From assembly GCA_049320885.1 (NCBI GenBank), contig JBMORA010000062.1:1-45204 (forward strand): 45,204 bases of DNA, given 5' to 3'. Origin of the DNA: Thermodesulfobacteriota bacterium. Its GTDB lineage: Bacteria > Desulfobacterota > Desulfobacteria > Desulfobacterales > SURF-7. Below the pieces are notes generated by a model. That model ran no database searches, was not told the origin of the DNA, and saw only the letters and a program-made list of their open reading frames with translations. Shown here in pieces: positions 19,054 through 45,204 of the stretch (its first letter is position 1; every line of letters starts with the position of its first letter). The translations under genes were made by a program, and so were the position numbers.

Positions 19054-19173
19054 TGCTGCGGCTCGAAAGGGAGGATTTCGGTCCTTCCGCACCGGCAAGG
19101 CGTTGGCATCCATTGCATCGATAACGAGGTCCCGGTGGGTCGGGAGCTCATTTCATCCCAAGGAGCGGCAATC

Positions 19174-20349
19174 ATGGCAAGCGTATTGATCATCGGCGCC
19201 GGCGGCGTCGGCAATGTCGTGGCGCACAAATGCGCCCAGGCGTCCGACATATTCACCAACATCTGTCTGGCCAGCCGCGACATCGCCAAATGCGACCGGA
19301 TCGCGGAACGCGTGGGCAAACCCATTGAAACCGCGCAGGTGGACGCGGATAAGACGCCCGAGGTCGTTGCCCTGATCCAGCGCGTGAAGCCGGATCTGGT
19401 GCTCAACGTGGCCCTGCCCTATCAGGACCTTGCGATCATGGAGGCCTGCCTTGCCACCGGCGTCGACTACCTGGACACGGCCAATTATGAACCCCCCGAC
19501 GAGGCCCGGTTCGAATACAAATGGCAGTGGGCCTTCCACGACCGCTTTCGGGAAAAAGGCATCATGGCCCTTTTGGGCAGCGGCTTCGACCCGGGGGTCA
19601 CCAACGTCTTTTGCGCCTACGCCCAGCGGCATCTCTTCGATGAAATCCATTTCATCGACATCGTGGACTGCAATGCCGGCGATCACGGTCATCCCTTTGC
19701 CACCAATTTCAATCCGGAAATCAACATCCGCGAAATCACCCAGAAGGGCAAATACTGGGCAAACGGGGAATGGATCGAAATTCCGCCCATGTCCGAATCC
19801 AGGGAATTCGACTTTCCCGGGGTGGGGCCGCGCAAGGCCTACCTGCTGTACCATGAGGAAGAAGAATCCCTCGTGAAACACATCAAGGGCTTGAAGCGGA
19901 TCCGCTTCTGGATGACCTTCGGCGAGGAATACCTCACCCACCTGCGGGTATTGCAGAATGTCGGCATGACCCGCATCGATCCGGTACGTTTCGAAGGCCG
20001 GGACATCGTCCCGCTGAAATTCCTCAAAGCCCTGCTGCCGGACCCGGGCTCCCTGGGAGTCACCTATTCCGGAAAGACGTCCATCGGCTGCATTTTCGAG
20101 GGGCTCAAAGACGGGCGCACGAAAAGAATGATGGTCTACAATGTCTGCGACCATGCGGAATGCTACCGGGAAACGGGCGCCCAGGCGGTTTCCTACACCA
20201 CGGGGGTGCCGGCCATGATCGGCGCGGCCATGATGCTGACGAAGACCTGGAGGGGCCGGGGCGTTTTCAACATGGAAGAGTTCGACCCCCTGCCCTTCAT
20301 GGACATGCTCAACCGCCACGGGCTGCCCTGGGAGGAAAAAGAGCTGTGA
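19174..20349 (+). CDS. Carboxy(nor)spermidine dehydrogenase (saccharopine dehydrogenase family)
   Basis: IIGAGGVG, NVALPYQDL, YLDTANYE, GFDPGVT, FATNFNPEINIRE, SYTTGVP; coupled to nspC. Confidence 0.93.
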   Translation: MASVLIIGAGGVGNVVAHKCAQASDIFTNICLASRDIAKCDRIAERVGKPIETAQVDADKTPEVVALIQRVKPDLVLNVALPYQDLAIMEACLATGVDYLDTANYEPPDEARFEYKWQWAFHDRFREKGIMALLGSGFDPGVTNVFCAYAQRHLFDEIHFIDIVDCNAGDHGHPFATNFNPEINIREITQKGKYWANGEWIEIPPMSESREFDFPGVGPRKAYLLYHEEEESLVKHIKGLKRIRFWMTFGEEYLTHLRVLQNVGMTRIDPVRFEGRDIVPLKFLKALLPDPGSLGVTYSGKTSIGCIFEGLKDGRTKRMMVYNVCDHAECYRETGAQAVSYTTGVPAMIGAAMMLTKTWRGRGVFNMEEFDPLPFMDMLNRHGLPWEEKEL

Positions 20350-21485
20350 TCCCGGATATCGCCGGCCTCCGGACGCCCTGCTATATCATCCACCTGGGCT
20401 TGCTCCGGAACAACCTGCGGATCCTTTCCCGGGTCCAGAACGAGGCAGGCTGCGAGATTCTCCTGGCCCTGAAGGGCTTTGCCGCCTGGAGCACGTTTCC
20501 CCTGATCCGGGAAACCCTTCGCGGGGTGACGGCCAGTTCCCTGCATGAGGCCATGCTGGGCCGGGAGGAATTCGGCGGCGAGGTGCATCTGTGCGCCCCG
20601 GCCTATCGGGACGATGAGATGGACGAAATCCTGGCCTGCGTCGATCATATCGTCTTCAATTCCTTTACCCAGTGGCAGCGGCATCGACATCGCGTCCGCT
20701 CGAACCCGCGCGACATTTCCTGCGGCCTGCGGGTCAATCCCGAGCATTCGGAAGTGGCCACGGCGATCTACGACCCCTGCGCCCCGAAGTCCAGGCTGGG
20801 TATCCTGCCCCGGGCCTTCGAGGGACAGGACCTGGATGGAATCGAAGGCCTGCATTTTCATAACCTCTGCGAACTGAACGCCGACTCCCTCGAAAGAACC
20901 CTGGCCGCCTTCGAGGCCAAATTCGGCCGGTACATCCGGCGGATGAAATGGATCAATTTCGGCGGCGGGCATCATATCACCCGCAAGGATTACGATGTGG
21001 AGCGTCTCTGCCGGCTGGTCCGGGATTTCCGGACGGCCTACGGTGTCCGGGTATATCTCGAACCGGGCGAGGCCGTGGCCTTGAACACCGGTTACCTGGC
21101 GGCCGAGGTGCTGGACATCCTTCATAACCGGATGGACATCGCCATCCTGGACACATCCGCGGCCGCGCACATGCCCGATGTGCTGGAAATGCCCTACCGG
21201 CCCGTGATCGAGGGCGCGGGCCTGCCGGGAGAACATCCCCATGAGTATCGCCTGGGAGGCCTCACCTGTCTTGCCGGGGATGTCATCGGGGATTATTCGT
21301 TTCCGGAACCGCTGCAGGTCGGACAGCGGCTGATCTTCCACGACATGGCCCATTATTCCATGGTGAAGAACAATACCTTCAACGGGGTGCGCCTGCCGGA
21401 CATCGTGCTGTATGAGCCCGACACGGAAACGTTCCGGGTGGTGCGGGAATTCAGTTATCCGGATTACAAGAACCGTCTTTCCTGA
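20346..21485 (+). CDS. nspC: Carboxy(nor)spermidine decarboxylase
   Basis: LLALKGF, LRVNPE, YDPCAPKSRLG, NFGGGHHIT, EPGEA, HMPDVLEMPY, TCLAGD, MVKNNTFNG. GTG overlaps the upstream TGA. Confidence 0.95.
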   Translation: MIPDIAGLRTPCYIIHLGLLRNNLRILSRVQNEAGCEILLALKGFAAWSTFPLIRETLRGVTASSLHEAMLGREEFGGEVHLCAPAYRDDEMDEILACVDHIVFNSFTQWQRHRHRVRSNPRDISCGLRVNPEHSEVATAIYDPCAPKSRLGILPRAFEGQDLDGIEGLHFHNLCELNADSLERTLAAFEAKFGRYIRRMKWINFGGGHHITRKDYDVERLCRLVRDFRTAYGVRVYLEPGEAVALNTGYLAAEVLDILHNRMDIAILDTSAAAHMPDVLEMPYRPVIEGAGLPGEHPHEYRLGGLTCLAGDVIGDYSFPEPLQVGQRLIFHDMAHYSMVKNNTFNGVRLPDIVLYEPDTETFRVVREFSYPDYKNRLS

Positions 21486-25471: not shown

Positions 25472-25575
25472 AATCGTTTTTGCTTTTCGTTTGTGGAAGC
25501 GGTATAGTCCCAGACGATCATCCGGGTTTTCCTTCATCGTGAATCCATCCTTAATTTTTTATGAGAAGAGGCGGC

Positions 25576-26739
25576 ATGGAATTTTTATACCTTTCCCCCG
25601 AGTTTCCCCCCAATTACGCCAATTTCATCATTCAGCTGGACAGGATCGGCGTCAACGTATGGGCCATAGGAGAAGCGGACTTCTTTTCCATGCCCCCCGA
25701 ACTGCAATCCGCCATCAAATGGTATATCCGCGCGCATCTCGGGTCACCGGAGATGATCGACCAGGTCATCGACGAGTTGATCCGGTCCAAACAGGCCATG
25801 GGCAAACCACCGCATTTCGATATCGTGGAATCCCATAACGAGCAATGGCTGTCCCTGGAGGCTTTCATCAACCGAAAACTGGACATGGACGGTATTCGTC
25901 CGCACCAACTGCCGCGGTTGAAGAAAAAATCGGTCATGAAAGAACAGTTCCGGGAATGCGGCTTGCGGACGGCCCGGGGGGAACTCGTCCGGAATCCCCA
26001 ACAGGCCCTGGAACTGGCCGATGCCCTGGGCTATCCCGTGATTTTGAAACCGGATGAAGGCGTGGGCGCCGGCGGTATCCACCGGGTTGAAGACGAGTCC
26101 GCCCTGCGGCGGATTCTGCCCGAATTGCACGGCGACTACTTCCTGGAGGAATTCATCGCGGCCCGGATCGTCAGCTATGACGGCCTGACGGATTACGACG
26201 GCGGGATCATTTTCGAAAACACCCTGATATACGGCGACGGGGTCCTGGAGTACATCCATGGGAAGGACACGTTTTTTTATACCGCCCGGATCATCCCCCC
26301 CGGGCTGTCGGATATAGGCGAACGGCTGGTCCGGCATTTCGACATCCGGCGCAAGTTTTTCCATTTTGAATTCTTTGATCTGGACGGCCAGTATCTGCCC
26401 ATTGAAATCAACTGCCGCCCGCCCGGCGGGGCCATTCTGGACATGATGAACTACAGCGTGGACGACGATCTGTATGCCGGCTACGCCCGCATGATCGCCG
26501 GCGGAAAGGCGCAGATGGCGGAGGAAAAGAAATACTATTGCGCCTATGTGGGCCGGCGGGACAGGGCCTATGCCCTGAGCCACGACGACATCCTGGCCCG
26601 CTGCGGGGCCTGTCTGACGGAATTCGGGGAAAATCCTCCCATTTATCGTCAGGCCATGAGCGACCGGAGGTATATCCTGCGCTCGCCGTCCGAATCCGAC
26701 CTGCTTTCGATGGCCGCCGATATCCAGCGACCATTGTGA
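25576..26739 (+). CDS. ATP-grasp (carboxylate-amine ligase-like) protein
   Basis: SPEFPPNY, ESHNE.WL, KKKSVMK, YPVILKPDEGVGA, FFHFEFF, EINCRPPG. Confidence 0.88.
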   Translation: MEFLYLSPEFPPNYANFIIQLDRIGVNVWAIGEADFFSMPPELQSAIKWYIRAHLGSPEMIDQVIDELIRSKQAMGKPPHFDIVESHNEQWLSLEAFINRKLDMDGIRPHQLPRLKKKSVMKEQFRECGLRTARGELVRNPQQALELADALGYPVILKPDEGVGAGGIHRVEDESALRRILPELHGDYFLEEFIAARIVSYDGLTDYDGGIIFENTLIYGDGVLEYIHGKDTFFYTARIIPPGLSDIGERLVRHFDIRRKFFHFEFFDLDGQYLPIEINCRPPGGAILDMMNYSVDDDLYAGYARMIAGGKAQMAEEKKYYCAYVGRRDRAYALSHDDILARCGACLTEFGENPPIYRQAMSDRRYILRSPSESDLLSMAADIQRPL

Positions 26740-32711: not shown

Positions 32712-32748
32712 GAGCCGCCCCCGCCTTCAAGAGGCGGAGGCGGCTTTT
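32712..32748 (+). terminator. Intrinsic terminator hairpin between convergent genes
   Basis: GAGCCGCC-C-CCGCCT / TCAAG / AGGCGG-A-GGCGGCTTTT. Confidence 0.7.
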
Positions 32749-34166
32749 CCGGCCAACCGGTAGTCTTCCTTCGACAGCCCGAATTTTTTCATTTTTTCAT
32801 AAAGACCGCGCGGATGGATGCCGGCCTTCAGGGCGGCCTTGTTGAGATGGCCGTTGGTTTCCGCCAGCACCATTTTCAGGTAGGCGTGTTCCACCAGGTC
32901 GATGATTTCATCGCGGACCTCGGGAAGGCTTTTATAACGCCATTCCGGATGAACGGTTTCCGAAATCGAGTCCAGGAAGGATATCTTGCCGTTCTGGGCA
33001 TGGATTCCCTGGGGCAAATCCTTGGCCGTAATGGTGTCGCCGTGGCAGAGAATCACCGCCCGCTCGATGACGTTGATCAGCTCACGCACATTCCCCGGCC
33101 ATTCGTAGTGCATGAGTTTTTCCAGGGCCTCCTGGGAGATCTGGTTGCTCTCGCGGTTCATCTTGATGCAAAGACGCTCCAGATATTGGTCAACCAGAAT
33201 GGGAATATCCTCGCGCCGGCTGCGCAGCGGCGGAACCGTCAGGGTGATCACGCCCAGCCGGTAGTAAAGGTCGCGGCGGAAAAGCCCTTTTTCGATTTCC
33301 TCTTCCAGGTTGCGGTTGGTGGCGGCGATCACCCGGATATCCACCCAGGTCGCCTTTTCGCTGCCCACCGGACGGACTTCGTATTCCTGCAAGACCCGCA
33401 GGAGCTTGGCCTGAAGATGCAGCGGCAGATCTCCGATTTCATCCAGGAATATCGTTCCCCCATGGGCCAGCTCAAACGCTCCGCGGCGCGGGCGCACGGC
33501 GCCGGTAAAGGCGCCCTCCTCATGGCCGAACAATTCGCTTTCCAAAAGGGCTTCCGGCAGCGCAGCGCAATTCACCGGCAAAAAAGGCCCGGTGGAACGC
33601 GGGCCCTCGGCATGAATCACCTTCGCGAGGTGCTCCTTACCCACTCCGGTCTCGCCGAGAATCAAAACCGGCGCATTGCAGGGAATGACTTTCTTGACCA
33701 TGTCCATGAAAATCTGCATCTGGGGGCAATCCGAAACAAAAGTGCTGAGCTTGGGCTGTGAATCGGTGCGCCTGTCCAGCCATGATTTTTGCACCAGTTG
33801 ACGCCGCGACTCCAGGGTCGTTTCGATGGCCTCGGCCAGCGTCTTGCGCGGCAAGCCGGCGAAAAGCACCACATCCGCCCCCCAGGCCACCAGATTGGCG
33901 TGTTCTTCCGGAGAATCGCTGTTGTGCAGCACGATGGTCGTCGGGTTTTCCGGCAGGTCATTGATCAAGGCGATGGCCGATTCGGGTGGTTTCGGCATCA
34001 GCTTCGTGTTCAATACAAAAATGTCGCCGCTGGTCTTGACCGCCTTCTGAAACGGATTGGCGCAGTTACCCACGGACTCGACGCGCACGTCCGGCTGGGC
34101 GAAACGTTCGGTCAGAAAAACTTCCAGGCTTTTGTTTTTTATGGCAAGAACAAGACGCAGCAGCAT
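32727..34166 (-). CDS. Sigma54-dependent enhancer-binding transcriptional activator (degenerate receiver-like N-domain, AAA+, Fis HTH)
   Basis: [45 protein letters not shown]-terminal HTH. AGGGAG RBS before ATG 34166. Confidence 0.95.
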
Positions 34167-34202: not shown

Positions 34203-34395
34203 CGGTAAAAATTTACCGATTCTTTTTTCCAGAAATCCAGCGACGGCCAGCATCCACCATGGGTAAATGAAATTCTGCAAATCGGCCCGCTTTTTTCCAT
34301 CGCATCTGACGCTAAAAAGCACCGGTTGTCAATCCTTTTCCGTAATTTTTTACCGGTTTTTCCGATCACAACCGAATTTCGGTATCCGGTTACCA
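34203..34395. promoter_or_regulatory. Three copies of the palindrome CGGTAA-N4-TTACCG; candidate upstream activator sequences
   Basis: 34203 CGGTAA-AAAT-TTACCG; 34340 CCGTAA-TTTT-TTACCG; 34380 CGGTAT-CCGG-TTACCA. Confidence 0.65.
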
Positions 34396-34481: not shown

Positions 34482-34497
34482 TGGTATGTTTTTTGCT
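34482..34497 (+). promoter_or_regulatory. Sigma54 (-24/-12) promoter TGGTATG-TTTT-TTGCT
   Basis: GG at 34483-84 and GC at 34495-96 with exact 10-bp spacing. AT-rich tract at 34426-34460 upstream. Adjacent to a divergent sigma54 activator. Confidence 0.8.
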
Positions 34498-34514: not shown

Positions 34515-34781
34515 ATGGCGGTATCCTTGTCCACGAATACGGACAAGCCCGGACGGAAAACTTCCCACTTCAGGAGACTGCGAATCTTGGGCGACGACGA
34601 ACTTGATTTTCATGCCGACGATGAGAAAGAGGCGGATTTCGAAGACGGAGACGACAAGCGCGCTCGACGGAAAAACCGTTCGGAGAGAGGGAACCGGTAC
34701 GAAGACATGGAGAAATTGGATCGTGAACGCACTCGAAGAAAAGCCCGTCGCGAAAAGCGCCGGAAAGGTGACTTGGGGTGA
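34515..34781 (+). CDS. Small highly charged, probably disordered protein (84-88 aa)
   Basis: First ORF after the sigma54 promoter. ATG 34515, or TTG 34527 after a GGCGGT RBS-like site. Acidic centre and Arg/Lys-rich tail. Confidence 0.55.
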   Translation: MAVSLSTNTDKPGRKTSHFRRLRILGDDELDFHADDEKEADFEDGDDKRARRKNRSERGNRYEDMEKLDRERTRRKARREKRRKGDLG

Positions 34782-34884: not shown

Positions 34885-35283
34885 ATGAGACTGGAAAGCA
34901 CGAGCGCCATACGGGAAACAGCGATTGCACTGGGCGTCTGGGGCATTTCTTCAAGCATCGACATTTACGACTGCAACCCCGAACTGATCCGGGACGCGGA
35001 AGCCATCCGCCGCTTTGTTGTCGAGCTGTGCGATCTCATCGAGATGAAACGGTTCGGCGAAACCCTGGTGGTCCATTTCGGCGAGGACGAAAAGGTCGCC
35101 GGCTACTCCATGGTCCAATTGATTGAAACATCGCTGATCTCGGCCCATTTCGCCAATCTGACCAATACGGTGTATCTGGACGTTTTCAGCTGCAAACCCT
35201 ATGTGCCGGACGTCGTCAAGGACTTTGCCGAAACATTTTTTAAAGGCGGCCGCAGTGTCATGCATGTGACCCTGCGTCAATGA
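34885..35283 (+). CDS. Pyruvoyl-dependent decarboxylase proenzyme of the S-adenosylmethionine decarboxylase (class 1B SpeD) family; substrate uncertain
   Basis: IDIYDC, HFG..GYSMVQLIETSLISAHF, YLDVFSCK; AAAGGA RBS. Confidence 0.85.
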   Translation: MRLESTSAIRETAIALGVWGISSSIDIYDCNPELIRDAEAIRRFVVELCDLIEMKRFGETLVVHFGEDEKVAGYSMVQLIETSLISAHFANLTNTVYLDVFSCKPYVPDVVKDFAETFFKGGRSVMHVTLRQ

Positions 35284-35318: not shown

Positions 35319-36278
35319 ATGCTGAATATCCGTATTGAAAACGATATCGACCGGTGCGGAGTTCTGTGGCAGCGGCTGTGGCCGGATCAGTGCCTGTTCG
35401 ACCGCTGGGACGTCCGGTTGGCCTTTCATCGGCATTTCGGCCGGCCGCCGCATTTTATCGTGGCCGAGAGAGCCGGCCGGCCGGTGGGCCTGCTGCCCCT
35501 CAGCTGGATTGAAGAGGAAGGATATTACGGCTGTTTCCCGGGGGAAACCTGGAAGGGGAAAACCTGGCTGGAGCAAAACCGGGTTCCCGCCGAATCCCAT
35601 GACATCCGGCAGCAGCTCTGGCTCGCCGGTCCCGATGATATCCGTATGCGCTATCTGCTTCCCGAAGAATCCCCCGGCAGCGCGGAAACCGATGAAACCG
35701 GTTATCTGTTTCATCCGTTGAAATACGGCGGGAACATAGATGCCTATTGGGCGGAATTCTCCGGAAAGTCGAGAAAACAGCTCAAACGGGAAGCTTCCGT
35801 CTATGCCGACAGGGACTGCCATTTTCAGGAAAACGCCTTCGATGACATCGACTGGATGTTCGAAACCAATCTGGCCAATTTCGGCACCAACTCCTATTTC
35901 CACGACCCCCGTTTTCAGAACGGGTTCGATGTCATGCTGACCCTCTTGCGCGACCTGAAGTCCCTGCGCACCGTAACCGTCCGGGTGAACGGGAAAAAAG
36001 CGGCCGTTGACGTCGGCGCCGTTTACCACGGTCGTTACACCGTCCTGGCCGGGGCCACGGATCCGGCCTTCCCGGGAATCGCCAAAACCATCAACCTGTT
36101 TCATCTGGAATGGGGCTGCGGCCGGAAATTTGACGAAATCGATTTTTTGTGCGGCGACTTTGGCTGGAAAACCAGATTTCATCTTCATCCCCGCCCCCTG
36201 TGCATCGCCCGAAAAAACGCCGCGGAACATTATGAAATAAAGCATACAGCAAAGGCGGCCGTCCTTGAGGCATCCTAA
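35319..36278 (+). CDS. GNAT-superfamily acyl/aminoacyl transferase (Fem/BcsL-like double GNAT)
   Basis: VGLLPL, YWAEFSGKSRKQLKRE, VRVNGKKAAV, IDFLCGDFGWKTRF. Confidence 0.8.
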   Translation: MLNIRIENDIDRCGVLWQRLWPDQCLFDRWDVRLAFHRHFGRPPHFIVAERAGRPVGLLPLSWIEEEGYYGCFPGETWKGKTWLEQNRVPAESHDIRQQLWLAGPDDIRMRYLLPEESPGSAETDETGYLFHPLKYGGNIDAYWAEFSGKSRKQLKREASVYADRDCHFQENAFDDIDWMFETNLANFGTNSYFHDPRFQNGFDVMLTLLRDLKSLRTVTVRVNGKKAAVDVGAVYHGRYTVLAGATDPAFPGIAKTINLFHLEWGCGRKFDEIDFLCGDFGWKTRFHLHPRPLCIARKNAAEHYEIKHTAKAAVLEAS

Positions 36279-37533
36279 TCGCGTTCTGGTGGTGGGCACC
36301 ACGCCGGATTATATCGATCATATCCGCCGCAGAAAACCCGGGCGGGCTGTTTTCATCACCGACCCGGACACGCTTCCCTCATCGACGCCGGCCGCGACAA
36401 CCGCGGAGGACGAACTGATCTGCCCGTTGCGGGAAGAAGATCGGGTGATCGCGGAGCTGCAATCCTTTCTGGATGCCCGCCACATCACACCCAGCGGCGT
36501 GGCCTGTTTCGACTGCGAATCCCTCGCCATGGCCGCGGCCATCGCCGCAAACTGGAAGCTGCCGTTTCCCTCAAGCCGGACCGTCCTGCTCTGCCGCGAC
36601 AAACTGGTCTGCAAACAACGCTGGTACGCTTACGGGGTGCCGTGCCCCAAGGTGATGGAAATCGGCGGTCCGGAAGACCTGGAGTCGTTGCTGGCGGAAA
36701 CCGAATCCGGCATCATCGTGAAACCCCTTTCCGGCAGCGGCAGCGAGTTGGTCTTTCGGTGCAATACGCCGGCGGAAGCCACGGACGCCTATCGAATCAT
36801 AACGGCAGGACTCGCAACCAGAAGCGGCCACCGGATGTACCAGCCGTCTGCCGGCAGGGGCCGCCCCCCCATCATCGCGGAAGAATTCATTCATGGTGAA
36901 GAATACAGCTGCGATGTCCTCATCAAATCAGAGCAAGTGAAAATCATACGGACGGCCAGGAAATATTTCCCGGAAAAAGGTCCTGTCGGCACGACCCGGG
37001 CCTATGAAATTCCGGCAGAGCTTCCGGTCACGACCGACGTCTCTGCGTTCATGGCATATATTTCCGCCGCCGTCAAAGCGGTGGAAATGACGGACGGCCT
37101 GTGCATGCTCGACTTCATCGTCCGCAACGGACGACCCTATTTCCTGGAAATCTCTCCCCGTCCGGGGGGCGATTGCCTTCCGTCCCTGATCGAGGAAAGC
37201 TGCGGTTTCGATATGATCAGCGCGGCCATCGATCACGCCGAAGGCCTGTGGCTGATGATTCCACCCGGGAATGCCTGGAAACGCCTCTTGGGGGTGCGAC
37301 TGCATGCCGAGCGTCCCGGCCGGCTGAAAGCCATCCGCCCGCTGCTGAACGGTTATGAAAACCGAATCCGTTCCATGGTCTGGTTGAAACAGCCCGGGGA
37401 TCTGATCCGGGTTCCCCCGGAAGATTATGGTTCCTGGCTGCTGGGATTCGTCATTTTCGAGCCGCTCAACGGCCAACCCGTCCCGCACCAGATACGCGAT
37501 CTGCAAAAACGGATCGAGGTGGATATCCAATGA
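36265..37533 (+). CDS. ATP-grasp amide/peptide ligase (L-amino acid ligase-like)
   Basis: CRDKLVCK, IVKPLSGSGSELV, AEEFIHGEEYSCD, FLEISPRPGG. TTG start overlaps the GNAT end. Confidence 0.88.
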   Translation: MRHPNRVLVVGTTPDYIDHIRRRKPGRAVFITDPDTLPSSTPAATTAEDELICPLREEDRVIAELQSFLDARHITPSGVACFDCESLAMAAAIAANWKLPFPSSRTVLLCRDKLVCKQRWYAYGVPCPKVMEIGGPEDLESLLAETESGIIVKPLSGSGSELVFRCNTPAEATDAYRIITAGLATRSGHRMYQPSAGRGRPPIIAEEFIHGEEYSCDVLIKSEQVKIIRTARKYFPEKGPVGTTRAYEIPAELPVTTDVSAFMAYISAAVKAVEMTDGLCMLDFIVRNGRPYFLEISPRPGGDCLPSLIEESCGFDMISAAIDHAEGLWLMIPPGNAWKRLLGVRLHAERPGRLKAIRPLLNGYENRIRSMVWLKQPGDLIRVPPEDYGSWLLGFVIFEPLNGQPVPHQIRDLQKRIEVDIQ

Positions 37534-37596: not shown

Positions 37597-38940
37597 GTGA
37601 GAACACGCATGGATGATCTGCTGCAAAAAGCCCGTGGGCTGCTGACTTCCCCAAGCCCGGCCATGAATGAAAACCATCTGGAGGTATTTGTCCGGTCCTG
37701 CCTCCGGCATCGCGACCTCTTCCTGGATCTCGCCCAAGGGAACAGCTCGCCTTTGTATGCCCTGGATGAAATCCGCCTGATCTCCAAGGCCCATCGCTTC
37801 CGCCGGGTGTTCGAGGAGGCCGTTGGCGCCGTGGACGTATTTTTCGCCATGAAAAGCAACAACATGCCCGATATCTCGCGCATCCTTACCGGCGCGGGCC
37901 TCGGCCTGGATGTATCCAGTGGATTGGAGCTGGAACAGGCCCTGGCAGTCAATGCGCAGCGCATTATCTTCAGCGGTCCCGGAAAAACCGACGACGAATT
38001 GCGCCTGGCCCTGGAACATGCGGGACGGGTGACGGTCCTCCTGGACAGTTTCGGCGAACTGGAGCGTCTGGCGCACCTTTCGGACAAACAAAACCAAACC
38101 ATCCATGCCGGTGTCCGCCTGACCACCAACCCCCATGGACTGTGGCGAAAATTCGGCATCCCCCTGGACCGCCTGGGTGATTTCATGGAGCAGGCGCGGC
38201 AGCATGAGAGGATTTCCCTGTGCGGTCTTCAGTTTCATACCAGCTGGAACCTGACCCCCACGGCCCAGACCGATTTTCTCAAGCAACTGGGGCGGAAACT
38301 TCACGACATGGGGCCGGAATCCAGAAAAAGCCTCCGATTCATTGACATTGGCGGCGGCTACTGGCCGGAACAGGGCGAATGGCTGCGGACCTGCGGCACG
38401 CCGGAAGGCCGGCTGCTGGAGCTGCTGGCGCCGGAGCGGCTGAATCCCCGCCTCCGCCATTGCCTGCGGAGTTCCCCGCTGGAGTTCTTCGCCCAAGCCG
38501 TCGCCACCGTCATCCGCGAGCATTTTCCCAAAGACATGGAGCGCCGCATCTGGCTGGAACCGGGGCGCTGGCTCTGCCATGAAGCCCTGCATCTGCTGAT
38601 GAGGGTGGTGGACGTGAAGGCGCCGGACCTCGTCATCACCGACTGCGGCACCAACGCCGTGGGCTGGGAACGGTTCGAGCAGGATTATTTTCCGGTCATC
38701 AATCTGACCCGTCCGGGGGTTACGGAAAACCCCTGCCACATTTTGGGCTCCCTGTGCACCCCTCATGATGTCTGGGGCTTTTCCTATCATGGGACGGACA
38801 TCCAACCCGGCGACCTGTTGTTGATTCCCACCCAGGGGGCTTACACCTACAGCCTGCGCCAGAATTTCATCAAGCCCCTGCCCCGGATCGCCCGTCTTCC
38901 CGTTGAAGTGGTCCTGGACTGGCCGCCGAATTTTTCCTGA
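37597..38940 (+). CDS. Group IV (alanine-racemase fold) PLP-dependent decarboxylase of the LysA/ODC family
   Basis: FFAMKSNN (PLP Lys), DVSSGLEL, SGPGK, KFG, FH, DIGGG, EPGR, GSLCTPHD, GAY. Confidence 0.9.
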   Translation: MRTRMDDLLQKARGLLTSPSPAMNENHLEVFVRSCLRHRDLFLDLAQGNSSPLYALDEIRLISKAHRFRRVFEEAVGAVDVFFAMKSNNMPDISRILTGAGLGLDVSSGLELEQALAVNAQRIIFSGPGKTDDELRLALEHAGRVTVLLDSFGELERLAHLSDKQNQTIHAGVRLTTNPHGLWRKFGIPLDRLGDFMEQARQHERISLCGLQFHTSWNLTPTAQTDFLKQLGRKLHDMGPESRKSLRFIDIGGGYWPEQGEWLRTCGTPEGRLLELLAPERLNPRLRHCLRSSPLEFFAQAVATVIREHFPKDMERRIWLEPGRWLCHEALHLLMRVVDVKAPDLVITDCGTNAVGWERFEQDYFPVINLTRPGVTENPCHILGSLCTPHDVWGFSYHGTDIQPGDLLLIPTQGAYTYSLRQNFIKPLPRIARLPVEVVLDWPPNFS

Positions 38941-39106
38941 AGGCGGTCCCGGAGTCTTCATCCCCTGTCTGTCCCCTGATTCCGGCTTCCGGATACCGAG
39001 TAGTTACGTGCGGTGATTGACATCCGGACGCCTTTCGGATATTCAGTTGAACCTTGAGATGCGTTTTCATCAAGCAGACCGGTTTCAACATGCAAGGACA
39101 AGGATC

Positions 39107-39856
39107 ATGAGTGACAACCGCGAAGGCCGCCGGGTGGGCATTGCTCAATTCTTTGAAAGCCATCAGCTCGGTTCCTATTTTATCAAATACGTTTATCTGC
39201 TTTTTTTTCTGGAGGCCTTCATCTTTCTGGCGGCTTTTTTGGGGAATCTGGGACCGGACAAGGGACCCTTCCCCTGGAAATTCTATTTCATAGTCTCCTT
39301 TGCGGCGCCCATCGGCATCACTTTCCTGCTGGGCGTCAGCGTCGCAGCCTTCAACCACTATATTTTCGACAAGGACGACGGTCCGGAAACACCCGCCGGC
39401 GCCGATGAACCCGGGCCGAAAAAAAACCGGATCACCTTCCGGCACGCCCTGTTTTCCCTCCGCAGGGCGCCTTTTCTGGCAATCCTGTTCTTCATCCTCA
39501 TCGGCTCCATCCTTTTCTACCATTCCGGCGTCATCTATGTGTATCTCGCCAATGCCGGTGAAAAAGCCGTCCGTTATCTGCTGGCGGCTCTCGGGGCCGC
39601 CCTTTTTCTGGGCGCCGGCGTGGCCGTCGCCTGGATCATCGCCAGCTACAAGCTGAAAAAGAGGCATCTGGACCATGCCTACGAATACAAAAAGGAAGTC
39701 ATGAAGACCATGGGGCTTCTGATCATGGAAGACAATCAAATCCTCGACTCCCACGGCAACCTGATCGCGCCGAAGCAGCCGAAACTCGTCGCCATGGATC
39801 CGGGCGACAGCCGCTATGGCACCATTTCACCCAACAAGAGGCAGATTGCTTCCTAA
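39107..39856 (+). CDS. Uncharacterised integral membrane protein (about 4 TM)
   Basis: Four hydrophobic segments; AAGGA RBS before ATG 39107. Confidence 0.7.
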   Translation: MSDNREGRRVGIAQFFESHQLGSYFIKYVYLLFFLEAFIFLAAFLGNLGPDKGPFPWKFYFIVSFAAPIGITFLLGVSVAAFNHYIFDKDDGPETPAGADEPGPKKNRITFRHALFSLRRAPFLAILFFILIGSILFYHSGVIYVYLANAGEKAVRYLLAALGAALFLGAGVAVAWIIASYKLKKRHLDHAYEYKKEVMKTMGLLIMEDNQILDSHGNLIAPKQPKLVAMDPGDSRYGTISPNKRQIAS

Positions 39857-39893: not shown

Positions 39894-41381
39894 TCAATGC
39901 ATCTTTTGAAACACCACCATTTGCCGGCAATCTCTGCCCAGTTTTATCAGACTGATGATCACCACGACGAATTCCAGACGCCCCAAAAACATGGCCAGGG
40001 TTTCCGCCCACAGGGCGGTATCCGGCATTGCGGCGGACGTCACGCCGATGGAGATCCCCACCGTTCCGAGCGCGGAAGCGAACTCAAAGAGCGACTCACC
40101 GATACCGAAACCGCAGGCGCACAGAATCAGAACGCCGAAAAGGTAGGTCACCAAGTACAGGAGTACAAAAAACGCGACTTGCCGCACTTTGGCGTCATCC
40201 ATGAAAACACGGCGATTGCCCTCCCAGAGGGAATATTCCAAAACCGCGCTTTGCGGCAGGAGAGAACGTTTCATTTCCCAGACGAACAGTTTCCACAAAA
40301 AGTAGACCCGAAACTGCTTGATACCGCCCGCCGTGGAACAGGTGCCGCCGCCGATCAGCATTAATACGATCAGGATCATCACCCCGAATCCGTTCCAGTC
40401 GCCATAGCCCACAGTGGAAAATCCGGTGGTGGTGATCGCCGATACCGTCTCAAACAAGGCGACGCGCAATGATTTTCCGAGCTGCGGATAAAGCGCGCGG
40501 CAGGTAAAAAAGAACACCGCCGCCGTCGACAAGGGAATGAGCAAACCCAAAAGACGGACTTCGCCGTTGCGTGCAACGAAGCGCAGCCTGCCGCGCCATA
40601 GATACCAGGCGGTGACGAAACTGAGGTTTCCGACCAGCATGAGAGCGATGGTTACCGCTTCGACGGCCGCCGAATTCCAATAGCCGATACTCTCGACATG
40701 CGTGGAAAACCCTCCGGTGGATACGGCGGCAAAGGCATGGTTGACGGCGTCGAAAAACGACATGCCCGCCAGCCGGTACGCCAATGTCCCGACAACCGCG
40801 TAGCAGGTATAGATGATCAAGACCAGCCGGGCCGATCGGCGGACGTGCGGGACGAGTTGATCGCCGCGTCCTTCGGCGCTCGAGATGCCGATTCCGGTGG
40901 GGCCGACAATGGCCGACATCATGATGATGGCCAGCCCGGCTCCACCCGCCAGTTGGACGATGCTGCGCCAAAGCAGGATCATGGGGCCTGCGCCGGCCAC
41001 ATCCAACACCGAAAGTCCGGTGGTAGTCCAGCCGCTCATCGATTCAAACACGGCCCGCGAGAAAGGAAGCCCGGAAACGGCGACAAAGGGCCATGCGGAA
41101 AAGAGAATGACCACGATCCAGCCGATCAGGACGATGATGCCGCCCTCTTGGATCGAAAGGGTTACGTTGTAGGGGGTACGGAACAGTTTCCGCAACACCA
41201 TTCCCGAAATGACGAGACATCCGGCGGGCAGGAGGAAGGCCGACGCGTTTGCCGCTTCCGCCGGATATGCCGGGATGGCCAGGAGCGGGGTCAACATCAG
41301 CAAGCCGGAGGGCAGGAGGATCATGCCGACGAAGGAAAAGACCGCTGTGTAGCGCAGTTTGAGATATTCGTTTTCCCGCAA
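39894..41381 (-). CDS. trkH: TrkH-family potassium uptake membrane protein
   Basis: FESMSGWTTTG, STGGFS, TTTGFS, GGGTCSTAGGIK, SALGTVG, LGRLE. Confidence 0.95.
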   Translation of the reverse strand: MRENEYLKLRYTAVFSFVGMILLPSGLLMLTPLLAIPAYPAEAANASAFLLPAGCLVISGMVLRKLFRTPYNVTLSIQEGGIIVLIGWIVVILFSAWPFVAVSGLPFSRAVFESMSGWTTTGLSVLDVAGAGPMILLWRSIVQLAGGAGLAIIMMSAIVGPTGIGISSAEGRGDQLVPHVRRSARLVLIIYTCYAVVGTLAYRLAGMSFFDAVNHAFAAVSTGGFSTHVESIGYWNSAAVEAVTIALMLVGNLSFVTAWYLWRGRLRFVARNGEVRLLGLLIPLSTAAVFFFTCRALYPQLGKSLRVALFETVSAITTTGFSTVGYGDWNGFGVMILIVLMLIGGGTCSTAGGIKQFRVYFLWKLFVWEMKRSLLPQSAVLEYSLWEGNRRVFMDDAKVRQVAFFVLLYLVTYLFGVLILCACGFGIGESLFEFASALGTVGISIGVTSAAMPDTALWAETLAMFLGRLEFVVVIISLIKLGRDCRQMVVFQKMH

Positions 41382-41392
41382 GGGATCGTCTC

Positions 41393-42055
41393 CTATATCC
41401 GTTGACCCGTAAACACCCTCAATACGGAACCGTGGTTTTCCGGCAGGGTGATAAGCACCACCCGGTCCCCGGCCAGCAATTCGTTGGCTCCCCGGGGAAC
41501 GATGGGGTGATTGTCGCGGATGACCACCGCGACCAGCGCATTCTCGGGCAGGACAATATCCTTCAAAAGCTTCCCCGCCACTGGAGAAGCGGCGTCAAGC
41601 ACAATCTCCGTCACATTGACCCGTCCTTCACCCACCGGCAACAGGTTGATGATCTGATCCAGGGACGCCCGCTGTTCGATCAGGCTGCCGACAATGTGGG
41701 TTGTGGAAAAAGCGGAGACGCCTAATTTCTCGAAAATCTCGGCGTTATCCGGATCATTGGCCAAGGCGATGGCCCGTGGCACGCCGAATTGAATGGCGGA
41801 AAGCTGGCAGATGACCAGGTTGTCCTGATCGTTGGGGGTGATGGCGAGCACCACATCCGCGGACATGGCGCCGGCTTCCTTGAGGGTCGCGGCATCGCTG
41901 CCGTCGCCGCAGACCACCATGGCGGAAAGCTGCCGGGCCAACTGGACACACTCCTGCTGGTTGCGGTTGATGATGACCACCTCGTATCCCTTGGCGGTGA
42001 AGTTCCGGCACAGAAAATACAGGGTCTTGCCGGCACCGACGATCAGCACCTTCAT
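41393..42055 (-). CDS. trkA: TrkA-family RCK-N / RCK-C potassium uptake regulator
   Basis: IVGAGK, GDGSD..L.EAG, TPNDQDN, TrkA_C domain. Confidence 0.92.
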   Translation of the reverse strand: MKVLIVGAGKTLYFLCRNFTAKGYEVVIINRNQQECVQLARQLSAMVVCGDGSDAATLKEAGAMSADVVLAITPNDQDNLVICQLSAIQFGVPRAIALANDPDNAEIFEKLGVSAFSTTHIVGSLIEQRASLDQIINLLPVGEGRVNVTEIVLDAASPVAGKLLKDIVLPENALVAVVIRDNHPIVPRGANELLAGDRVVLITLPENHGSVLRVFTGQRI

Positions 42056-42492
42056 GATTCGGTTGATCCTTTCTCCGCCCGGCCGCTGGCGACTGCCAGA
42101 AAAAACATCTCCGCAGCCACCGATGTCGGGCAGATCGTCTCGATGCCGAGCTGCTCGTAAACCTGCTCCCGCCGGGGATCAAAAACCCTGGCCAGCACAT
42201 GCGGAACGTTGAACAATTTTCGGGCGATCTGGGCCACCATCAGGTTGACGTTGTCCTCGTGCGTCGTAGTGAAACAGACATCGGCCTGTTTCAACTTCGC
42301 CTCCTTCAGCACCGCGATCTGGGTGGCGTCTCCCACGATCCGGAAGCCGCTGAAGTCGGGCGACAGATCTTTGAAAGTGCCCTCGTCCGAATCAATCACC
42401 ACTACCGAATGACCGACACGACTCAACTGGTTCGCCAGATTCGACCCCAGACGCCCGCAGCCGATGATGGCGATGTACAGGTTACGTTTCAT
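42052..42492 (-). CDS. Short TrkA-N (RCK-N only) protein
   Basis: IIGCGRLG, GDAT..LKEA, TTHEDNVN, ARVFDP. Confidence 0.9.
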   Translation of the reverse strand: MKRNLYIAIIGCGRLGSNLANQLSRVGHSVVVIDSDEGTFKDLSPDFSGFRIVGDATQIAVLKEAKLKQADVCFTTTHEDNVNLMVAQIARKLFNVPHVLARVFDPRREQVYEQLGIETICPTSVAAEMFFLAVASGRAEKGSTES

Positions 42493-43208
42493 TCCCTTCC
42501 CCCTTTGCCGCTTGTATCCTCGAGGTTCCTGTCCCTTGTATTCGGTCCGAAATCGATCTTCCCGATCTTGTGCCAGGATGAGATCCGTTCCAGGTTCGTC
42601 CAGGCCGGTTTATAGGTGGGCTCGATGTCCAGAGCCGCTCGATAGAATTTCTGGGCTTCCAGCCGGTCGCCCCTGATCTCATGTAACGCTCCGAAAAGGT
42701 TGTATGCCTCCGGTTGGGCCGGGTCGACGGCGATGGCCTTCCGGACCGTTTCACGGGCGACGGCGAAATCGCGCTCCGAGATGTGCCGCTTGGTCAGCTC
42801 GATCCATTCATGATAATCGGGGTTTCCTGTTGCTTCCAACTTCTCCCGTTCCAGGACCCGCTTCGCCAGCTCGCGGATTTCTCCGGGACTGAAGGGCTTC
42901 TGGATGAAATCCACGGCACCGAGTTTCATGGCCTCCACCGCGGATTCGATGGTTCCGTGTGCCGTAATGATGATCACCCGGGTTTTGGGCCAGTCGTTCT
43001 TGATTTGGCGTAGAACCTCCATGCCGTTCATCCCCGTCATTTTCAAGTCTAGGAAGACCAGCTTGAAGGGACCTTCGCGAAGCTTTTGCAGCGCCTCTTC
43101 ACCGTTCACGGCCGTTTGGACCGGGAGCCCCAACGGCTCCAGGGACTGCGACATGGTAAGACGGATGTTTTTCTCGTCGTCCACGATGAGCATGCGTTTT
43201 TCTTCCAT
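42489..43208 (-). CDS. Response regulator receiver with C-terminal TPR-like helices
   Basis: LIVDDE, FLDLKM, ITAHG, QKPF; then AIAVDPAQPEAYNLFG..A..FYRAALDIEPTY. Confidence 0.9.
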   Translation of the reverse strand: MEEKRMLIVDDEKNIRLTMSQSLEPLGLPVQTAVNGEEALQKLREGPFKLVFLDLKMTGMNGMEVLRQIKNDWPKTRVIIITAHGTIESAVEAMKLGAVDFIQKPFSPGEIRELAKRVLEREKLEATGNPDYHEWIELTKRHISERDFAVARETVRKAIAVDPAQPEAYNLFGALHEIRGDRLEAQKFYRAALDIEPTYKPAWTNLERISSWHKIGKIDFGPNTRDRNLEDTSGKGGRE

Positions 43209-43218
43209 TGGCTTCCTC

Positions 43219-45051
43219 CTATTCGGGTACCGGCAGCGTGAAGGTGAACGTACTGCCCCGACCGGGGGTGGATTCCACCCAGATGGCCCCGCCATGAGCG
43301 CGCACGATCTCTTTACAGATCGCAAGCCCCAGACCCGTTCCGCCGGCGGCCCGCCCTTCCACCTGAACGAATTTTTGAAAAATCCTGGATTGATATTCCA
43401 GGGGGATCCCCGGTCCATCGTCGCGCACGGACAAATGGACATGCGGGCCGATTTTATTCGCCGCAAGCTGGATCCGACCGCCCTTGGGTACATATCGCAA
43501 CGCATTGGAAATCAAGTTGGTCAGCACCCAGGTGATCTTGTTGGCGTCCGCTCGGACCTTCGGCAGTGTCCCGGTGGTCTGTAACGTCAGCGCGACCTCC
43601 TTCATGTCCGCCTGGCTCCTGAAAACCGCCTGGACATGCTCAAAAAGCGTCGTAATCGGTACATTTTCGAACTCCAACTCGATTCTGCCCGCTTCTATCT
43701 TGGACAGATCCAGCAAATCATTGACCAGGGCCTTCATCCGGTGAACTTCCTCATGGGCTGCCTGAAGAAGTTCACGATCCTTTTCGGAAAGGTCCCCGGC
43801 AGTGTGTTCCAGAAGCAGATCCACGCTCATCCCCAGGCTGGTCAACGGCGTACGCAATTCGTGGGAGGCGGCCATGACGAATTCATTCTTGAGCCTTTCC
43901 ACTTCCTTCAGACGAGTGACGTCCCTCAGCAGCAGAACGATCCCGGATAGATGCTGGTCCCGCCCGCGAACCACCGTGATGGAAAAAAGGTAGTGACGTT
44001 CCCCATCCGCTTTGGAGAGGGTGATGATCCGTTGTTCATCCGGAACATTGGGTTGCATACCGGTTTCCACCGTTTTTTGGATCAGCCGGCAGACTTCCGA
44101 GTTCGGAAAAAGGTCGCGGCAATGCAATCCGGGAGGTTCGGAAAAAACCGATTCCAGCATCCGGCGGGCGGCCGGGTTGATGCCGGTGGTCTTGAGCGAC
44201 GGATCGAAAACCACCAGTCCATCCTCGATACTGGTAAGAATGGCCTCCCCCTTGTTTTTTTCCGCGATGATCTGCTCGATGTTGATTTCGTGGTAACGGG
44301 CGAGTTGAGTGGCCATTCGATTGAATTCAGCTGCCAGGCGGCCCAATTCATCGCCGGTTTCCGCCGATACCTGGACAGTGTAGTCACCCGTCGAAATCTT
44401 TCGGGAAGCATCCATGAAACGACGAATCGGCCCGACGATCCGCTCCGCGAGGAACAGGCTGAATATCATGGCCACAATCAATGCCGCCGCCGCTACCAGC
44501 GCCGTGGACCAGATAGCGCGCTCGGCCACAATGCCGGCCCGCACACTGGCCGCGTACATGGTCTCCTCGTTTAGATTGCGCAAACCGATGCAAGATGCGC
44601 GGGCTTTGTTGAACAGAGGATAGACGGTTTCCAGATATAGGGAAGTCGACAAAGGCGGTCTGGCTGCATCGCGCAAGTCGGTCAGCTCGGAAAAGCGGCG
44701 CCGATAGGCCGCGTAATCCTCCTCTATGGATTGGACGAGTTTCGCTTCACCGGCAACCGTGATGTTGTCCTCGGCCCGGGCCAGCCATTCAAGAAAGGCC
44801 GCCTCATGCTCACGAAATCGGGCCACCCCCGCCTCCGCATCTCCAAGAAACATCAGCAAAATTCCGCTGTCCTGACGCTCCAATGCATCCACCATATTCT
44901 CGGCGGCAAGGATGCTCCGGTAATTCTCACTCAGGATCGCGTTGGTGGCATTGCCGAGGGAGACAAGATTGGTGATGGCCCAAACGACCACAAGTCCCAT
45001 GAGGGCAAAAGCGAAGCCGTATCCGATCAATATTTTCTTTTTCAGTGTCAT
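43219..45051 (-). CDS. Membrane sensor histidine kinase (periplasmic helical sensor, HAMP, PAS, HisKA, HATPase)
   Basis: Two TM segments, GDELGRLA HAMP, ASHELRTPL, NLISNA, DDGPGI, GTGLGL; start at MTLKKKIL. Confidence 0.95.
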   Translation of the reverse strand: MTLKKKILIGYGFAFALMGLVVVWAITNLVSLGNATNAILSENYRSILAAENMVDALERQDSGILLMFLGDAEAGVARFREHEAAFLEWLARAEDNITVAGEAKLVQSIEEDYAAYRRRFSELTDLRDAARPPLSTSLYLETVYPLFNKARASCIGLRNLNEETMYAASVRAGIVAERAIWSTALVAAAALIVAMIFSLFLAERIVGPIRRFMDASRKISTGDYTVQVSAETGDELGRLAAEFNRMATQLARYHEINIEQIIAEKNKGEAILTSIEDGLVVFDPSLKTTGINPAARRMLESVFSEPPGLHCRDLFPNSEVCRLIQKTVETGMQPNVPDEQRIITLSKADGERHYLFSITVVRGRDQHLSGIVLLLRDVTRLKEVERLKNEFVMAASHELRTPLTSLGMSVDLLLEHTAGDLSEKDRELLQAAHEEVHRMKALVNDLLDLSKIEAGRIELEFENVPITTLFEHVQAVFRSQADMKEVALTLQTTGTLPKVRADANKITWVLTNLISNALRYVPKGGRIQLAANKIGPHVHLSVRDDGPGIPLEYQSRIFQKFVQVEGRAAGGTGLGLAICKEIVRAHGGAIWVESTPGRGSTFTFTLPVPE

Positions 45052-45204
45052 GGACTTTCCATCCTTGCATCCGGTTACCGAATATGCGGAGCAACGAGCA
45101 TGCCAGGATTCGTTACCATATTTACAATAGGTTACAATAAAATAGCCTGGGATGGTCTTGAAAATTGAAAGGTCGGAGAGAAGCGGCCTTGCAAACTGCA
45201 AGGC

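Follow-up and report, generated by a model that had tools for sequence, protein, structure and literature searches.

The window, meaning the whole 45,204-nucleotide stretch of Thermodesulfobacteriota DNA that was analysed, carries a short gene of the S-adenosylmethionine (SAM) decarboxylase fold family followed on the same strand by three larger enzyme genes, with a divergent regulatory gene and a promoter-like site upstream. The features on which the argument draws are the following.

19135-21485, + strand: CASDH-like and CASDC genes of the SAM-independent spermidine route (CASDH-like gene at 424 against a cut-off of 800)
32727..34166, − strand: divergent sigma-54 enhancer-binding activator with GAFTGA motif (PF00158, PF02954; likely start ATG 34166)
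34482..34497, + strand: sigma-54 -24/-12 promoter-like site upstream of speDC (motif scan)
34587..34781, + strand: small, highly charged (acidic/basic) ORF between the promoter-like site and speDC, 64 aa from TTG 34587
34885..35283, + strand: speDC, predicted pyruvoyl-dependent L-ornithine decarboxylase proenzyme (PF02675, diagnostic residues)
35319..36278, + strand: Fem-like double-GNAT transferase (Acetyltransf_6), 319 aa (PF13480; weak TIGR03019 FemAB match at 20 bits, below cut-off)
36265..37533, + strand: ATP-grasp ligase of the L-amino-acid ligase type, ~420 aa (PF02655/PF13535)
37597..38940, + strand: fold-III (alanine racemase fold) PLP decarboxylase (PF02784/PF00278)

The speDC ORF runs from ATG 34885 to a stop at 35283 on the + strand, encodes 132 amino acids behind a good ribosome-binding site and matches PF02675 at 77 bits (cut-off 25), the family to which all 30 of its 30 Atlas feature matches belong. 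A sequence-only reading of this DNA had pointed to a self-cleavage motif with the pyruvoyl Ser, the downstream His and the Cys of DVFSC retained, and we confirm these residues as S83, H88 and C103 (L79-I-E-T82-S83-L-I-S-A-H88-F-A-N-L92, then D99-V-F-S-C103). Self-cleavage is predicted at Thr82/Ser83 (codon 35131), with computed chains of 9.3 and 5.7 kDa. Of 4059 candidates in a protein search, 4052 were matches, and the best 120 were all at least 71% identical to the query. In an alignment of 115 of these 120, Q78, L79, I80, E81, T82, S83, H88, F89, Y97, D99 and C103 were invariant (115/115), as were the conserved glycines G20 and G73. This invariant core excludes a pseudogene, decay or a chance ORF, and the protein belongs to a large conserved family rather than being a one-off. 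When the protein and its profile were searched against PDB sequences, there were chance matches only and no AdoMetDC structure among them.

Pyruvoyl-dependent L-ornithine decarboxylases derived from AdoMetDC were named SpeDC by Li, Liang, Phillips and Michael in 2023 (PMC10407285), with Gln, Thr, Phe and Tyr as diagnostic residues. All four are present here as Q78, T82, F89 and Y97, in the same order and around S83, H88 and C103; their positions were inferred from that order and from Fig. S5 of the paper, to which the Ser, His, Cys and glycines of the ORF were also aligned by eye. The rewired active site noted earlier is thus not new; it is this published signature. The same study assayed EMS77273 of Desulfotignum phosphitoxidans, a SpeD-SpeDC fusion whose C-terminal domain is an ornithine decarboxylase (ODC), not an AdoMetDC, and whose activity is abolished by S229A. 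An alignment with such neofunctionalised homologs, proposed earlier as a check, gives 79 of 114 residues identical to the assayed domain (~69%, from W19 on, hand count) and 75/114 to a stored fusion of the Desulfotignum type. In the core columns (78-86, 88-91, 97, 99 and 103) the operon group (48-50 of 50 rows) agrees with the fusion C-domains (13/13), whereas 11 canonical-type SpeD rows carry Ala-Glu-Ser-His and Pro where the operon group differs; T82, L84 and N91 of the ORF face E, H and P in 11/11. In a quick tree with 99 rows (one in three of the 80 genome loci described below, 39 phylum loci and the stored fusion proteins, the assayed proteins being absent), the operon clade (support 84) grouped with the C-domains of 11 SpeD-SpeDC fusions as its sister (joint support 94), and canonical SpeD was separated from this operon/fusion group at support 100.

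PF02675 homology, the Ser/His/Cys set with its glycines, the full signature, the position in the quick tree and a genome without canonical SpeE all agree with membership in SpeDC. Very probably, then, the ORF is a SpeDC that would decarboxylate L-ornithine to putrescine, an activity shown for close homologs and inferred here from likeness to them. The kind of enzyme was already published in 2023, and the ORF adds one member to the family. SpeDA, the pyruvoyl arginine decarboxylase (ADC) derived from AdoMetDC, is described in PMC10407285 as having a central motif that stays close to that of AdoMetDC and does not carry the SpeDC signature; judged by this description it is a poorer match, given that the full SpeDC signature is present. 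That paper uses the absence of an agmatine-to-putrescine route as a search heuristic for SpeDC and links agmatinase to SpeDA rather than SpeDC genomes; the present genome encodes an agmatinase beside a pyruvoyl ADC, and one assayed SpeDC host also carries SpeB (PMC10407285).

A change of substrate in the SpeDC of the operon clade, whether to arginine, lysine or diaminobutyrate or to an acylated ornithine that the ligase would provide, is improbable. The clade is distinct in the quick tree, Ala87 stands for Gly in 42/50 rows and Thr60 for Cys, the genome encodes an agmatinase, and a pelagiphage ADC falls inside the published SpeDC clade, with one phage enzyme taking both ornithine and arginine (PMC10407285, PMC9992855); however, every core active-site column agrees with the fusion-type ODC domains, Ala87 also occurs in 6/6 SET-fused SpeDC outside the operon, and among the homologs assayed in PMC10407285, as far as its available text goes, none accepted lysine. 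A distinct SpeD-like subgroup (L122, L123, L125 and L126; such labels are ours) keeps Gln, Thr and Tyr, but its residue at the diagnostic Phe position is Ala. The fused relatives include SET-domain/SpeDC proteins (P0126, P0130, P0136, P0138, P0154 and P0222, with Leptospira names) and a methyltransferase/SpeDC protein (P0216).

The Trp and Glu of the HTWPE motif have roles in SAM binding, and their loss was the argument from which the sequence-only reading concluded that the protein is probably not a SAM decarboxylase. The substitutions are real, since alignment with 11 canonical-type SpeD sequences shows Ala90 facing Trp, Tyr or Phe and Leu92 facing Glu in 8/11; position 92 is itself variable in the SpeDC family (Leu 30, Gln 12 and Ala 4 of 50 rows). 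As a deciding argument, though, the loss is weak: the SpeD homolog of Sinorhizobium phage phiN3 (L135:1492-1908), 33% identical to the ORF, lacks the Trp, Pro and Glu of the motif, and the phiN3 protein, which we assume to be this annotated homolog, reportedly brought spermidine back in E. coli delta-speD (PMC9992855). Because the Trp/Glu loss does not decide the substrate, the case for an ODC rests on the full signature together with the identity to the assayed domain. The phiN3 protein also has Gln, Phe and Tyr, and a true AdoMetDC with three of the four SpeDC residues calls for caution in motif-based assignments. The conclusion itself fits the evidence. The ORF shares the PF02675 fold family and the self-processing residues with class 1b AdoMetDC (SpeD/SpeH, TIGR03330), but it scores 25.9 bits on that equivalog, far below the cut-off of 75.65, has Thr-Ser-Leu for Glu-Ser-His, and is without the conserved Pro and a SpeE partner. 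That it is nevertheless a divergent true SAM decarboxylase, as its being the only SpeD-fold gene of the genome, the phiN3 example, three membrane-fused spermidine-synthase-like proteins in the genome and speE in 8/19 operon genomes might suggest, is extremely unlikely given this score, the Thr82 and Glu81 that phiN3 lacks, the ~69% identity to a domain shown to act as an ODC rather than an AdoMetDC (PMC10407285), and a genome in which canonical speE was not found.

Downstream of speDC, the Fem-like GNAT has an Atlas model with TM 0.78 to a FemAB_like cluster, and PDB sequence searches with it gave no match; FemAB-like aminoacyl-tRNA transferases are its nearest relatives, too remote for their substrates to be transferred. 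The ATP-grasp gene starts within the end of the GNAT gene, overlapping its stop, and its profile matches 4DIM, the L-amino acid ligases 3VOT and 4WD3, and BacD; L-amino-acid ligases (BL00235, BacD) are likewise remote as nearest relatives, and their substrates are not transferable. The PLP decarboxylase scores 141.7 on LysA TIGR01048, below the cut-off of 297.9, and keeps its catalytic residues (K86, H214, EPGR and a C387-T-P-x-D loop) in columns invariant across 48 homologs; the loop aligns with SbnH 6KNH. An Asp directly after the catalytic Cys holds small substrates by their side-chain amine, and FigC has another residue there (PMC7857480). In the operon enzyme this position is Thr, from which we predict that its substrate is a bulky acylated amino acid. 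For the three downstream enzymes together, PDB matches were weak or partial, and a close characterised relative was not found. A membrane protein at 39017-39856 was rejected as an operon member (0/80 loci). The window also encodes a second, unrelated ATP-grasp protein at 25561-26739 (+ strand), between enoyl-CoA hydratase and esterase genes.

We next asked how far this arrangement is conserved, using the best 80 of 437 genome loci, chosen by similarity, and 19 phylum loci, which after removal of 3 duplicates gave 96 loci. Among the best 80 of 437, the GNAT was found in 78, the ATP-grasp enzyme in 72 and the PLP enzyme in 71, the misses lying near contig ends; where the downstream DNA suffices, the three genes were adjacent in 93/93, 87/87 and 85/85 loci, respectively. 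These adjacency counts leave out 21 loci whose SpeD homologs are below 60% identity; the downstream genes occur in none of them, and the two that were inspected are speD/speDC/speE clusters like those described in PMC10407285. By record titles the operon is present in at least nine phyla, including Thermodesulfobacteriota, Planctomycetota, Lentisphaerota, Zixiibacteriota, Sumerlaeota and Hydrogenedentota. In 401 genomes of the phylum, sampled without such selection, the SpeDC query matched 54 genomes, 20 of them at 63% identity or more, while the GNAT and the PLP enzyme matched the same 22 genomes (~5%; 22/401), 20 of which carry an operon-type speDC. The two exceptions are a genome in which the contig breaks inside the GNAT gene (G085) and a complete single-contig genome (G257; L136, C1:1070000-1084000) that has the operon and its activator without speDC. 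In G257 the activator faces the GNAT gene across 470 bp, in which a speDC remnant was not found, and speD, speE and, in the speD-speE cluster (L138), a Vibrio-type PLP Lys/Orn decarboxylase (E 1e-131 to 2PLJ) are encoded elsewhere; this single case fits a putrescine-supply role for speDC. Four further proteins (P0125, P0131, P0132 and P0162) fuse SpeDC to a PLP decarboxylase 47% identical to the operon enzyme. The SpeDC part of these fusions is intact, so that one chain is predicted to hold both a PLP and a pyruvoyl cofactor.

The genome (G000; 5.6 Mb, 98.2% complete) has a single gene of the PF02675 (SpeD) fold. The absence of a nearby speE had been noted from the window, and it extends to the whole genome, where canonical speE was not found (TIGR00417 below cut-off, PF17284 without a match); three PF01564 matches, membrane or TPR fusions of 713-1131 aa below cut-off, were rejected as speE. 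Searches of G000 found neither a PF01276 decarboxylase nor an agmatine deiminase, and three matches to PF02784, none of them SpeA-sized. Within the window, 14 kb separate speDC from the CASDH-like and CASDC genes upstream of it, and the organism is thus predicted to make spermidine without decarboxylated SAM. On contig C25 a pyruvoyl ADC gene adjoins an agmatinase gene (above cut-off), so the cell is predicted to have a second putrescine route, from arginine, apart from speDC; an arginase-family gene lies on contig C64. The genome also holds a second, divergent pyruvoyl ADC-like gene (G000:C32:30706-31185) and an additional fold-III decarboxylase (G000:C25:102134-103690). Among 19 other operon genomes, a pyruvoyl ADC was found in 7 and SpeA in 4 others, giving 11/19 with another arginine decarboxylase, and speE scored above cut-off in 8/19. 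In the remaining 8/19 neither of the two arginine decarboxylase families searched was found, so speDC may also serve housekeeping there.

The separate arginine route in this genome, the other arginine decarboxylases in 11/19 operon genomes and the G257 case argue for a dedicated supply, and SpeDC heads a regulated four-gene operon to which its putrescine would probably go, for an amide-linked conjugate rather than for housekeeping polyamines. The converse, that the putrescine serves mainly ordinary spermidine synthesis via CASDH and CASDC while the three downstream genes have a different target, is unlikely, although the CASDH-like and CASDC genes share the window, speDC stands beside casdh/casdc in one deltaproteobacterium (PMC10407285) and 8/19 operon genomes had no other arginine decarboxylase in the two families searched. 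In 80 + 40 flanking regions there was no CASDH match, and the two weak CASDC matches both fell on the operon's own PLP gene; moreover, the gene order is fixed, speDC is found fused with the PLP enzyme, and the arginine route is separate.

The longest ORF of the sigma-54 activator starts at 34322. Such an activator lies upstream in 59/97 loci, and a TetR-type regulator in 19. The window contains 2 matches to the sigma-54 motif where 0.17 were expected. With the sigma-54 consensus loosened to admit the 34482-34497 site, a scan of up to 700 nt upstream found the motif in 44/59 activator loci (1.4 expected, Markov resampling), 0/19 TetR loci, 4/15 loci with neither regulator and 2/4 with short upstream DNA. 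Since the motif tracks the activator loci and is absent from all TetR loci, the operon has two alternative regulators. Sigma-70 and terminator scans gave nothing beyond chance. The second sigma-54-like site of the window (45090-45105, − strand) lies near the start of histidine kinase, response regulator and Trk potassium-uptake genes (39894-45201).

The small charged ORF, 88 aa long if started at ATG 34515, had no match in a Pfam scan. Similar charged ORFs precede speDC on the sense strand in 35/94 loci and on the other strand in 0; by locus type they accompany 31/59 activator, 0/19 TetR and 6/16 other loci. A subset ends in a recurring basic motif, and in P0063, P0067 and P0121 the charged ORF is fused to the SpeDC N-terminus. 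Possible roles are those of leader peptide, partner of the activator and substrate; an obligate substrate is ruled out because the ORF is missing in 19/19 TetR loci and poorly conserved in sequence.

In the pathway that we propose, SpeDC would cleave itself at Thr82/Ser83, converting Ser83 into the pyruvoyl cofactor, and turn L-ornithine into putrescine for the operon. The ATP-grasp enzyme would couple an amino-acid carboxylate to the putrescine amine, the side-chain carboxyl of Glu or Asp being the simplest guess, the fold-III enzyme would strip the free alpha-carboxyl from the bulky acylated intermediate, as in SbnH and BtrK, and the Fem-like transferase would attach an aminoacyl group, from aminoacyl-tRNA, or an acyl group. 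These steps would yield a small, cationic conjugate holding putrescine in amide linkage, made without SAM or SpeE. The butirosin pathway likewise pairs an ATP-grasp ligase, BtrJ, with a fold-III decarboxylase. We lean, if only somewhat, towards the four enzymes forming such a SAM- and SpeE-independent route to an amide-linked amino-acid/putrescine conjugate, with SpeDC drawn from primary polyamine metabolism as its dedicated diamine source; if so, the conjugate may serve as a polyamine substitute or stress solute, the hosts being mostly uncultured anaerobes. Any single product structure would be doubtful at best. The earlier suggestion that the protein supplies a diamine to neighbouring ligases fits this evidence, which narrows the choice of substrate to L-ornithine.

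Macromolecules can be substrates of Fem-like and ATP-grasp enzymes, and the operon might then modify a protein or envelope polymer rather than yield a free metabolite, with the charged ORF as candidate acceptor of putrescine-derived chains. The sense-strand bias of this ORF, its fusion to SpeDC in some proteins and the failure to find a recurring exporter are in keeping with that idea; its absence from every TetR locus and its poor conservation speak against it and leave it very unlikely. No recurring transporter or carrier-protein gene was found among the neighbour clusters. In three loci (L018, L098 and L104) small zinc-ribbon proteins with acidic tails, which presumably resemble LysW-type carriers, lie upstream of speDC, and similar ones are absent elsewhere; a carrier link to the ATP-grasp enzyme is possible there.

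Downstream of the PLP gene and on the same strand, a citrate synthase of one of two different types occurs in 11/77 loci (L010, L014, L016, L025, L046, L051, L052, L058, L078, L105 and L108), in 8 of them within 350 nt, which suggests repeated recruitment and is a minority hint of a citryl product or of glutamate supply. There is accordingly a slim chance that the product is a citrate-containing, rhizoferrin-like putrescine conjugate, with the ATP-grasp ligase replacing an NIS synthetase. The PLP enzyme, like FigC and SbnH (PMC7857480), has no Asp after the catalytic Cys; yet the citrate synthase is missing in 66/77 loci, this one included, a recurring siderophore exporter or receptor was not found, and citrate synthase could merely boost glutamate and ornithine supply. 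For NIS siderophores of the rhizoferrin or staphyloferrin B kind, neither the four genes nor the recurring neighbour clusters contain an NIS synthetase or exporter. The operon PLP enzyme and SbnH have the Cys-Thr-Pro-x-Asp loop in common (PMC7857480), but its similarity to SbnH, FigC and BtrK is distant only, and the operon, without NIS synthetase or carrier protein, adds the Fem-like transferase and SpeDC.

Compared with the published SpeDC proteins, the ORF has the same fold family, Ser/His/Cys residues and Gln-Thr-Phe-Tyr signature, ~69% identity and a genome without canonical speE. The difference is one of context: the published genes stand alongside speD/speE, casdh/casdc or hss (PMC10407285), whereas here SpeDC heads a ligase/transferase/decarboxylase operon in a host with another putrescine route. 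The words ATP-grasp, GNAT, ligase and sigma do not occur in the available text of PMC10407285. Our literature search for the operon, which reached few subscription papers, found no paper on it, only Li 2023 being relevant, and the operon context of SpeDC is undescribed as far as that literature was searched.

SpeDC is usually mis-annotated as SAM decarboxylase. More important than the enzyme, however, is the operon, a compact, self-contained and highly conserved set of four enzymes. If the proposed pathway is true, it would extend SpeDC from polyamine supply to specialised metabolism and would give functions to three enzyme subfamilies, namely the Fem-like transferase, the ATP-grasp ligase and the fold-III decarboxylase.
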